The notes under the pieces: generated by a model | The model's database searches: none | What the model saw: the letters and a program-made list of their open reading frames with translations, nothing else | Told to the model about the DNA's origin: nothing | Shown: positions 14,553-51,113 of the stretch, piece by piece | Layout: every line of letters begins with the position of its first letter | How positions within the stretch are numbered: the stretch's first letter is position 1 | Translations under genes and position numbers: made by a program | Source: Octopus vulgaris | Lineage: Eukaryota | Direction of reading: 5' to 3' | NCBI GenBank assembly: GCA_951406725.2 | Contig: OX597817.1 | Coordinates: forward strand, 148,552,001-148,616,000 | DNA length: 64,000 bases

Positions 14553-14913
14553 ATATATATATATGTATATGTATGTATATCGTAAAATCACAACAGATCA
14601 GATCCGTTATGGTATAGGAACGTAAACACACCAGCATCGTTGTTCAAGCTATGGCAAGGGGACATAGACACACACAGATACATATATATAAACATATATA
14701 TGTATTCATATATATATATGCACGCACACACAGTCACACACACAAACACGCACACAAACACACACACAGAAATATATATCTTATGTGTGCGTATGGTTAC
14801 ATAAGCATATATATATATATATATATATACATATACACATGCATACATATATACGTACATATATATATATGTACATGTATATATGTGTATATATATATGT
14901 ATATATATATGTG

Positions 14914-14945
<32 letters not shown>

Positions 14946-14950
14946 TATAT

Positions 14951-15536
14951 TCCTGGTTTACGGAATTAATTTTTATTTGCGGTTGAAGCTTTGGCTGTTA
15001 TTTCTAGTGGGTGAATGGCCTATTATGGCCGTTCCTTGATTGTTGATGTTGAACTTAAAAATGGTCTATGACTATTTAATTTTTTCCCACTAGGCCGCTG
15101 GTGGCAAAAAAATTCTACAAAATTTTTTTTGCCACCCTATATTGATTAATTATGAATTTTCTGGTTAATTCCGTAATGGAATCGACGGCTTATATTTATT
15201 TGCTGCCGATAAATTTGGCGCGAGTGCGACGATTTGAAAATTTTAGGTCAGATATAACCTTGGCAAGGTCGGAAATGCCTCGTGAAAATATCTGTTCCGA
15301 CTTGGGCTATTTCTTACTGAAGAATCTGAGGGCCTATGGAAGATTGGCTTGATTTAATTTAATCAGGTTAGTTTACCATTAATCAGCAGATGAAACGGTG
15401 CATCGTATAAGAAATTACAGGGTAAATGTTTTTTTTAATTTTCTCCTGGTTTACGGAATTAATTTTTATTTGCGGTTGAAGCTTTGGCTGTTATTTCTAG
15501 TGGGTGAATGGCCTATTATGGCCGTTCCTTGATTGT

Positions 15537-15540
<4 letters not shown>
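14951..15540 (+). mobile_element. 493-bp unit with 97-bp perfect terminal redundancy and intact hammerhead (retrozyme-like / PLE pseudo-LTR)
   Basis: 14951-15047 is identical to 15444-15540; flanked by (TA)n on both sides; no credible ORF; many internal stems. Confidence 0.75.
15309..15415 (+). ncRNA. Type I hammerhead ribozyme with intact catalytic core
   Basis: Stem I atttctta(15309-16)/taagaaat(15408-15); CTGAAGA 15317-23; stem II ATCTG/CAGAT (15324-28/15387-91) with a structured 58-nt insert; GAAA 15392-95; stem III CGGTGCATCG; GUA cleavage triplet ending at 15407. Confidence 0.8.
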
Positions 15541-15590
<50 letters not shown>

Positions 15591-16167: not shown

Positions 16168-16385
16168 CCGAAATTTTTGTGGGAGGGATACAGTCGATTA
16201 GATCGAATCCAGTGCGCAACTGGTACTTAATTTATCGCCCCCGAAAGGATGAAAGACAAACTCGACCACGGCGGAATTTCAACTCAAAACGTAAAGACGG
16301 GCGAAATACCTATTTCTTTACTACCCACAAGTGGTTAAACACAGAGAGGACAAACAAGGACAGACAAACGGATTAAGTCGATTAT
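16168..16385 (-). mobile_element. SINE family B fragment spanning the dimer junction
   Basis: ..cgcaactggtacttaatttatcg..ggcgaaatacctatttctttactacccacaag.. has the same junction as 35206-35620. Confidence 0.8.
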
Positions 16386-16970
16386 AAAAGTTTTTGCCAG
16401 TCATTATAGTTTGAACATTTAGTTTAACTTGCACTTTACTTCAATAGAGAAATCTAATTCTAAGCCTTTGAACATTTTTTCAACCAACCCATCCATCTTT
16501 ATTTGATCTCTACTTATTATTTCTTTAACCCTTCTCTTTCTAGTATCTGCTTTTGACGTCGAATCTACTAACGGTTTTTTTTAAATACTTAATAACGTTC
16601 TTTTTATCATTTAGGCAGTCATCGTAATTGTTATAATGTCTTGTTGTTGAGATAGGCTCTCTTTCTTTCCTGATGAGAAGATTGCATTTTACACCGTTTA
16701 TTCCTTTGAAATAAAACCAATGTTGTCTTCGAAACATATGTCGAAAGTAAACGAATTTTAATAACATGTGCGTTCAACTCCATTTACTTACTTATACTAC
16801 ACAAATTACTGCACATTAACTCGGAGCTTCTACCTTTGAATAAGTCGCTTCATCCGTGTTACTTGCGTGAATTTTGCTACCCTGGTAACTGTTTATTGAA
16901 TTTTCCATATCAACGGTAAACAAAGGATAATTCATTCATCCATTTATATATATATATATATATATATATA

Positions 16971-34344: not shown

Positions 34345-35205
34345 CATAATATATCAATTCATTTCTGAGTTTGTGCGTGCGTGTGTGTATGTGTGTGTGT
34401 GAGGGGGTGTATTGGGATTCTCTGTCCGCAGGGCATAATTGGCGTCAGTTGTCTTGATTGCATGTGAACGAGGATTAGGCGAGGAAATTTAGGGAAGAAT
34501 GAACAGTTGTATCATCTGCTTAGGTGTTGATGTTTTGTTGGAAGTGGAAGCAGGTAAAACATTAATGCCTGGGAGGGTCGAGGGGGGTAATTGTGCTGAA
34601 TAAAATAAGCAGGGCCCTCATATGAATTGCTCATTATCGAGATTTGACTGTATTAGTAGATATAAAGAGATTGTGGCTTTAAATGAATCATCTTTTGGAT
34701 TACCAGAAAGTCACAAATCAATAATTTATTCGATGCAATGTGAGACCAAGTACGAACGAAGGCATATTAATCCACATAATTTAGATGTTCGCTTCGTAAC
34801 CACAAATTCGCTGGTTGGACATAATGCGCGCTTTGTCTTGAGTTTTTGTCAGACGTTAAGAGTGAAACCATGATTGTGTAAGCTACACCAATTCAACGAA
34901 ACAATACAGTATCTGACCAACTCACCTAACATCCAAATATTGTTTTTGAAATTCTCACTCGCAAAATTATACACAGCCGTATGATGAATTCTACAACATG
35001 ACACATGATAACCGTCTATATCAGACTACGCAATCTCGACAATTTCGACTATGTCTGTGCATCTATGAGCTATGAGCCATGGCCGCAGGACTTTATTAAA
35101 GCCCTGAGAGACAAGATGAACAAGATGGAATGAGATATCTCTACGTCATTAATTGGTTTCAATCGACATACAGTTGTGAAACACTTATCTCACTCACTAA
35201 ATATC

Positions 35206-35620
35206 TATTTCTTTACTACCCACAAGGGGCTAAACACAGAGAGGACAAACAAAAAGAGACAAACGGTTTAAGTCGATTATAACGACCCCAGTGCGTAACT
35301 GGTACTTATTTAATCGACCCCGAAAGGATGAAAGGTAAAGTCAACCTCGGCGGTATTTGAACTCAAAACATAGCGGAAGACGAAATGCCTATTTCTTTAC
35401 TACCCACAAGAGGCTAGACACAGAGAGGACAAACAAGGACAGACAAACGGATTAAGTCCATTATATCGACCCCAGTGCATAACTGGTACTTATTTAATCG
35501 ACCCCGAAAGGATGAAAGGCAAAGTCGACCTCGGCGGAGTTTGAACTCAGAACGTAGCGGCAGACGAAATAGCGCTAAGCATTTCGCCCGGCGTGCTAAC
35601 GATTCTGCCAGCTCGCCGCC
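35206..35620 (-). mobile_element. SINE family B, 1.8-mer
   Basis: Full monomer followed by a second monomer lacking about 45 nt of the head. Confidence 0.9.
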
Positions 35621-50698: not shown

Positions 50699-51113
50699 GG
50701 CGGCGAGCTGGCAGAAATGTTAGCACGCCGGGCGAAATGCTTAGTGATATTTCGTCTGTCGTTACGTTCTGAGTTCAAATTCCGCCGAGGTCGACTTTGC
50801 CTTTCATCCTTTCGGGGTTGATTAAAAAAGTACCAGCTACGCACTGGGGTTGATATAATCGACTTAATCCGTCTGTCTGTCCTTGTTTGTCCCCTCTTTG
50901 TTTAGCCCCTTGTGGGTAGTAAATAAATAGGTATTTTGTCTGTCGTTACGTTCTGAGTTCAAATTCCGCCGAGGTCGACTTTGCCTTTCATCCTTTCGGG
51001 GACGATGAATAAAGTACCTGTTACGCATTGGGATCGATGTAGTTGACTTAATCCCTTTGTCTGTCCTCGTTTGTCCCTTCTATGTTTAGCCCCTTGTGGG
51101 CAATAAAGAAATA
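50699..51113 (+). mobile_element. SINE family B, 1.8-mer
   Basis: Same junction taaataaata|ggtatttt near 50930. Confidence 0.9.

Follow-up and report, generated by a model that had tools for sequence, protein, structure and literature searches.

Within a 64,000-nucleotide stretch of Octopus vulgaris DNA (the window), a non-coding, hammerhead-bearing insertion lies between two (TA)n arrays. It comprises the following features, given in window coordinates.

14807..14950, no strand: (TA)n target, left flank
14951..15540, + strand: single-armed insertion of 1.2 units of the 493-bp retrozyme unit; the 3′ end is fixed site 1 and the 5′ end is variable
14951..15047, + strand: 97-bp repeat, first copy, whose end is an internal site-1 copy (unit position 97)
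14958..15176, + strand: predicted folded domain that leaves both start sites unpaired and to which related families can be aligned
14958-69/15165-76, 15004-11/15086-93, and hairpins 15013-34 and 15100-36, + strand: predicted helices and hairpins of the folded domain
15048..15153, + strand: 106-nt “tail” from site 1 to site 2; site 2 (unit 198-203, window 15148-15153) is the second putative start
15266..15303, + strand: predicted 9-bp hairpin on the upstream side of the ribozyme
15309..15415, + strand: type I hammerhead, assigned by motif anatomy and conservation among copies
15329..15386, + strand: 58-nt hairpin extending stem II
15407..15408, + strand: predicted cut; it follows GUA here and GUC in an older subfamily; arm 5′ ends accumulate just 3′ of it
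15444..15540, + strand: 97-bp repeat, second copy, terminating at site 1, the putative reverse-transcription start for the window insertion
15539..15590, no strand: (TA)n target, right flank

The two copies of the repeat match at all 97 positions, with the identity extending in neither direction, and the longest stop-free frame of the unit is 68 codons. An earlier, sequence-only reading of this locus, which described an exact 97-bp repeat set between (TA)n arrays with no credible open reading frame, is borne out on these points. It had also treated the 97 bp as a terminal redundancy. This is not a feature of the family: the 5′ ends of its copies (“arms”) are variable, with arms ranging from 40 nt to 9 units, and the 97 bp merely mark where that of the window arm fell. 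The window copy consists of one arm, ended at site 1, that passed the predicted cut once and halted 36 nt before reaching it a second time. It differs from the commonest letters of the family only at subfamily positions and at one homopolymer position and is thus, to judge by its letters, among the youngest copies. Because it contains a single hammerhead, no unit-length RNA would be released from it, and, having a single arm as well, it is likely a dead end.

The hammerhead is complete and of type I, with every part where it had earlier been placed: stem I (15309-16/15408-15), CUGAAGA (15317-23), stem II (15324-28/15387-91), GAAA (15392-95), a palindromic stem III (15395-15406), and GUA (15405-07), with cleavage predicted to follow 15407 (unit position 457). 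Absent from that description is the 58-nt hairpin that stem II encloses. The proposed search with the Rfam Hammerhead_1 model returned nothing, and no Rfam hammerhead family matched at E ≤ 10, probably on account of the long stem II; identification of the ribozyme therefore rests on motif anatomy and conservation among copies. The catalytic core is nearly invariant over more than 200 unit passes, most changes falling on N7, N17, and the middle of the stem III palindrome. N17 reads GUA or GUC, and the palindrome centre reads GC, AT, or an intermediate AC. Relative to a family of 73% identity, 5 of 27 pairs are changed on both sides, spread over stems I, II, and III. Across 14 related rows, which amount effectively to two or three lineages with few independent events, 94% of cells pair, compared with 29–52% when partners are slid. 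Considered together, core invariance and the double changes in stems I, II, and III argue for a ribozyme under selection. Self-cleavage of the RNA is predicted, and 5′ ends accumulate at the predicted cut.

All four helices named in the sequence-only reading can be read in the sequence, and three of them are present in the predicted folds. The extensive folding it claimed is likewise recovered: in circular mode, the fold z of the unit relative to 60 shuffles is −5.0 (+ strand) or −3.9 (− strand), and 14951-15185 gives −6.1. A ribozyme-competent fold lies 1.6 kcal/mol above the minimum of the predicted circle. Stem III is predicted at −0.2 kcal/mol within one unit and −17.5 kcal/mol between two units, and predicted pair probability is low for stem I (0.14–0.54) and high for stem II (>0.9). 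An alternative fold that buries the core is seen for 15300-15540 alone and is gone when the whole unit is folded.

The genome searched, 2.8 Gb in 227 contigs, is microsatellite rich. At least 232 matches to the unit come from the best 40 of 1,341 candidates, and the full-length ones are mostly 97–100% identical; a single-copy sequence, which the sequence-only reading had allowed for, can be set aside. The 3′ half of the hammerhead has 2,503 exact matches. A pattern spanning the site-2/TA junction has 593 forward-strand matches, which on doubling gives ∼1,200 insertions; its reverse-strand count (1,249) was discarded as inflated by the variable gap in the pattern. Exact site-1/TA junctions number 231 (control, 0), an undercount since site 1 varies among subfamilies. 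These subfamilies range from 99% down to about 91% identity, the 73%-identical family shares the layout, and two more relatives at 65–72% align over the folded domain. Hammerhead runs reach 10 at 493-bp spacing, and arms reach 9 units, as expected of the young, multi-copy, tandem retrozyme first proposed. Older relatives of 65–75% identity with a two-arm layout occur at L172-L201, L193:820-1090, and L208:6290-6720, and inspected copies of the 73% family have the core CCGAUGA.

With one type I hammerhead per unit, head-to-tail tandem units from dimers to multimers, no coding frame, a GC content of 36% (<45%), and ends that are not LTRs, the 493-bp family is a young non-LTR retrozyme, an element of a known kind. 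Its long tail (103–106 nt) and long stem II set it apart as a variant. The published non-LTR retrozymes (Cervera and de la Pena, 2020, PMC7229834; Li, Clavereau and Pollet, 2026, bioRxiv 10.64898/2026.07.22.740005) are likewise non-coding, low-GC tandem units with one type I hammerhead each, found as dimers to multimers alongside Penelope-like elements, with a ribozyme fold accessible in the predicted circle. In contrast, the octopus unit has the 58-nt stem II hairpin, and its 493 nt exceed the 170–400 nt of PMC7229834, although they fall within the 51–972 nt of the preprint. Circles have been demonstrated for published elements, whereas the 493-nt family is known here from genomic copies. Both papers propose circle copying and Penelope mobilisation, and the portions of them available here do not describe fixed starts, paired arms, or stops at the cut. 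Neither “octopus” nor “cephalopod” appears in the main text of PMC7229834, and the preprint, which covers 35 genomes, has no mollusc among the groups named in the part available. In the literature searched, which excluded most subscription papers, Repbase, Dfam, and supplements, we found no description of this family, of paired arms stopping together, or of stops at a hammerhead cut.

The sequence of the stretch was found in 20 of 23 sequencing runs (5 organism labels, 8 studies; 14 runs guessed to be RNA). Contigs from four runs cover all 29 bins, tandem junctions included; such contigs reveal no ends, strand, or circles. Differences from window 14951-15443 in runs X3 and X6 are most often A>G (11 of 17 and 9 of 26 places, respectively), and several of the A>G differences are absent from the largest run. 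They could reflect A-to-I editing, at low depth and in runs guessed, rather than recorded, as RNA.

The arrangement of arms is highly regular. Among 72 arms (39 loci plus the window, with one nested locus and one rearranged piece left out), 69 end at unit 90-103 or 196-208, adjoining (TA)n. These positions define site 1 (window 15047/15540) and site 2 (∼15153), which lie 103–106 nt apart, both read TTGATT-NN-T-N-AT ahead of the TA run, and are predicted to be unpaired; 5′ ends are variable. The sequence-only reading had asked whether copies are tandem or circularly permuted with different start points. The copies are tandem and not freely permuted; their 3′ ends are fixed at these two sites. 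Requiring a full unit, as was done for the initial 39 loci, skews the 5′ ends, and stops were therefore counted again in two samples selected by their ends. In sample A (60 loci from contigs C1-C5, picked by the site-1 junction), an opposite arm is present in 45 loci, all 45 ending near site 2, and was not detected in 15. Sample B (40 loci from contig C1, picked by the site-2 junction) has 25 clean pairs, all ending at 92-102, with 12 single arms and 3 loci set aside. All 70 clean pairs use one site per arm in head-to-head orientation, and 27 of the 100 end-picked loci have one arm only. Arm-arm junctions have short overlaps or short filler. Two fixed 3′ ends with a tail, an inverted 5′-truncated arm, and a microsatellite target together form the insertion pattern of Penelope-like elements.

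At least one ribozyme is present in 54 of 97 insertions, and at least two in tandem in 24 of 97. Li et al. (2026) take two consecutive hammerheads as their criterion of activity, and the window copy has one. Two loci depart from the general pattern. In L126, the site-1 arm contains tandem repeats of a 241-nt mini-unit in which a deletion has spared the ribozyme and site 1, as if a smaller circle had been copied. L034:2394-7223 is a nested insertion in which both arms carry the same aberrant junction, local flank sequence included.

In 41 of 43 loci, both arms belong to one subfamily, where chance would give 14%. Of 70 pairs, 32 have their two stops within 30 nt of each other on the RNA, against a permutation mean of 9.8 (0 of 20,000 permutations reach 32), and with arms that stop at the cut removed, joint stops are found in 13 of 45 pairs (mean 2.3). 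Both arms halt at the first cut in 17 pairs (single stops, 22 and 20; p = 3e-9). Shared subfamily and joint stopping thus point to two arms copied from one RNA, likely the same molecule.

We counted encounters with the predicted cut over 168 arms, dropping three rearranged arms and one locus. At unit 458-487, 51 of 199 encounters are stops, compared with 72 of 1,365 (5%) in ten other 30-nt windows, stronger helices included. At the first encounter with these 30 nt just 3′ of the cut, 45 of 136 arms stop. The edge at the cut is sharp, with 33 versus 2 ends on its two sides in sample A and 17 versus 5 in sample B. Site-1 arms end at 458-473. Most site-2 arms end at 479-487, some 22 nt before they would reach the cut; this offset calls for an extra assumption, either queueing behind the first polymerase or trimming to A/T microhomology. 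We read the pile-up as probable run-off from ribozyme-cut RNA. A stop here yields an insertion without a ribozyme.

Stalling of the reverse transcriptase at hammerhead stem I, or a preference for joining in the A/T tract at unit 476-487, would place ends in the same region without a cleaved RNA end. The 3′ strand of stem I (unit 458-465) overlaps the pile-up, the site-2 arms terminate in the A/T tract, and stubs shorter than 30 nt halt at a strong hairpin beside site 2 (L121, L122, L139, L164). However, stem I is predicted to be weak and stem II strong, yet windows at stem II and at four other helices stop only 4–9% of arms. Site-1 ends in unit 451-473 fall inside the stem I 3′ strand in 14 of 26 cases, with one beyond the cut. 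Moreover, either a stall or a joining preference should recur at every pass, and such recurrence is not observed, which makes this explanation improbable. Stops number 45 in 136 first encounters with the cut and 6 in 59 later ones (33% versus 10%; p = 7e-4, an arm-level value that is too small since paired arms are non-independent), the later rate does not differ from background (p = 0.13, also at arm level), and the second encounter alone gives 6 stops in 42. Read-through junctions lack an indel in 227 of 230 cases, and we therefore rejected template jumping at the cut as the principal route of read-through. Rare later stops and exact junctions are what a ligated circle predicts. Among 20 locus-private variants seen in at least two passes, 13 are in all passes, several of them in both arms, and 7 are in some; a further 111 private variants are confined to a single pass. 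Variants recur with period 3 in L060 and period 2 in L033.

An account in which Penelope-driven insertion uses the two sites but circles are never copied, with long arms derived from uncut tandem transcripts and arrays lengthened or homogenised in DNA, has several observations in its favor. Some arms halt at the cut after 1–7 read-throughs, the 7 of 20 variants are present in some passes only, the weak monomer stem III implies that uncut multimers should exist, and uncut RNA also yields exact junctions. We nonetheless judge it rather unlikely. Independent partial cleavage predicts a constant stop rate, in contrast to the observed fall; most shared private variants are in every pass; and linear RNA copying can only shorten arrays, yet tandem ribozymes persist in the 24 insertions noted above. 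Since the stops after read-through and the partial variants are unexplained by a closed monomer circle, uncut multimers also serve, and we conclude that both templates were probably used, leaning toward circles as a real template. When checked by eye, ends did not clearly accumulate at one full circle's length from the start sites. The earlier proposal of reverse transcription around a 493-nt circle therefore holds in part: the cut was probably copied through from a circle in a share of insertions, but the 1.2-unit window copy alone is no proof, since an uncut tandem transcript yields the same.

A search for a partner enzyme, using a GIY-YIG profile and two protein searches (150 of 6,136 GIY-YIG candidates scored), identified three intact Penelope-like families with frames of 775–781 aa containing reverse transcriptase and GIY-YIG, (TA)n ends, and two-site tails of 30–37 nt. 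Their linker suggests the Neptune or Nematis type. The unit has no DNA similarity to these three families or to the other fetched GIY-YIG loci, and we infer a partner of the Penelope-like class. In the 781-aa family, a hammerhead-like motif lies about 75 nt before the first end (L100:6051-6115 and 27 other places). Its core reads UUGAUAA, the positions of C3 and G8 being occupied by U3 and A8; stem II has 4 bp, stem III is palindromic, and young copies have a poor stem I. A core with U3 and A8 may be active. At L234-L247, one Penelope-like family is present in many copies whose 775-aa frame is intact; a frame of about 450 aa lies upstream, and the copies form exact tandems of about 4.27 kb. 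No Pfam match was found in the upstream frames of the other two families.

Two further explanations concern what the unit is. It could be the pseudo-LTR of an autonomous Penelope-like element, known here from truncated fragments, since fixed 3′ ends, a tail, inverted arms, a (TA)n target, and a hammerhead are all described for pseudo-LTRs in the available part of PMC8557442. But what lies upstream of each unit is another unit, up to 9–10 in a row. Fixed ends attached to a Penelope frame, the case weighed in the sequence-only reading, are not seen: in 140 stretches, no copy runs into a Penelope frame, and no frame combining reverse transcriptase and GIY-YIG is joined to the unit. Penelope-like protein matches occur in 4 of the 140, three of them 0.7–1.4 kb from the arms and one across the (TA)n run beyond an arm 3′ end. 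Apparent retrozyme/Penelope chimeras (L072, L208, L239, L163, L069) resolved into separate insertions, either within a common (TA)n run or at a distance from each other. We consider a pseudo-LTR very improbable. The same holds for a SINE-like passenger of a LINE, whose inverted arms would reflect L1-type twin priming. In L1, two primers on one RNA do give inverted arms, but they copy adjacent, non-overlapping parts, whereas here both arms start at fixed internal sites and the same stretch is copied twice. The family has neither poly(A) nor a fixed RNA 3′ end, and four T runs of 5–8 in the unit argue against Pol III.

The closest parallels to the insertion pattern are among Penelope-like elements. 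Neptune-type endonuclease-positive elements (Craig et al., 2021, PMC8557442) share the (TA)n target, partial tandems, an inverted 5′-truncated arm, a tail at one end, and a hammerhead upstream of the 3′ end. The 493-bp family differs in having no open reading frame and a tail of 103–106 nt rather than the 30–40 nt reported there. Poseidon from the green anole, studied in vitro (Frangieh et al., 2024, PMC11167929), has two internal start sites whose spacing equals the tail, nicks and extends both strands of an AT-rich target, and has its hammerhead upstream of the start sites. Its two strands, however, did not differ in start site, whereas pairs of the 493-bp family use one site per arm. In addition, uncut RNA was the main Poseidon substrate, the ribozyme was dispensable in vitro, and no RNA-seq ends mapped to the cut, where a third of arms stop in the 493-bp family. 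Chlamys elements such as MRC1 (Craig et al., 2021) are also non-autonomous, Penelope-like, and inserted as multicopy head-to-tail arrays, but resemble their partners at the 3′ end and, as described in the portion available, mostly lack a canonical hammerhead; the 493-bp family has a hammerhead.

Other repeats were also noted. A second, unrelated hammerhead element occupies window 16383-16946 (core from 16670, + strand), 0.85 kb off, and has a long stem II, a palindromic stem III, GUC, and a (TA)n end. It has 2,553 candidates at 93–95% identity, some copies at least 1 kb long, and its inverted arms end about 150 nt before the main end; no Penelope frame match was found near its copies in 12 loci. 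Another head-to-head hammerhead family, at L078:94-570, has a 59-nt stem II, with one arm ending in (TA)n and the other reaching further. Long tails and long stem II may be general among the non-autonomous elements of this genome. Window 35205-35570 and 50748-51113 are 184-bp tandem dimers of a SINE-like repeat, also present at 16200-16390, which resembles an octopus SINE.

Our main reading, to which we assign a probability of roughly three in four, is that the 493-bp family is a non-coding hammerhead tandem repeat that has entered (TA)n tracts ∼1,200 times, likely through a Penelope-like reverse transcriptase/endonuclease priming two cDNAs on each RNA. In the mechanism we propose, tandem copies would be transcribed, probably by read-through or by Pol II, and the ribozyme would cut part of the RNA, probably as a dimer via the palindromic stem III, with some monomers ligated into circles. 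The borrowed enzyme would nick both (TA)n strands, which would prime on a single RNA molecule, one from site 1 and the other from site 2. On cut linear RNA, both polymerases would run off at the cut after about 130 and 220–240 nt, and the resulting copy, lacking the ribozyme, would be dead; a circle or uncut multimer would instead be read through to give up to 9 or more units. The cDNA 3′ ends would then be joined head-to-head via short microhomology or templated filler. The window copy would have retained one arm, which passed the cut once.

The origin of Penelope tails and inverted arms, the role of the hammerhead, and the reverse transcription of retrozyme circles are described as open in the available parts of the literature (PMC8557442; bioRxiv 10.64898/2026.07.22.740005; PMC11167929; PMC7229834). 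More tentatively, at somewhat less than even odds, the insertions may be a record of the Penelope/retrozyme reaction itself. A dimeric enzyme would nick both (TA)n strands and use two structure-defined starts on one RNA; the hammerhead would act as a switch between cut linear RNA that yields dead copies and religated circles that yield live arrays; and the folded 106-nt spacer would mimic the 30–40-nt tail of the partner without sequence similarity. With ∼1,200 short, young insertions, the site used per arm, joint stopping, and the frequency of cut passage can be answered by counting. In contrast to the in vitro study, the sample suggests frequent use of cut RNA as a template and a separate start site for each strand. 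The 493-nt RNA would also be a small template on which to try the three intact Penelope-like proteins of the same genome.
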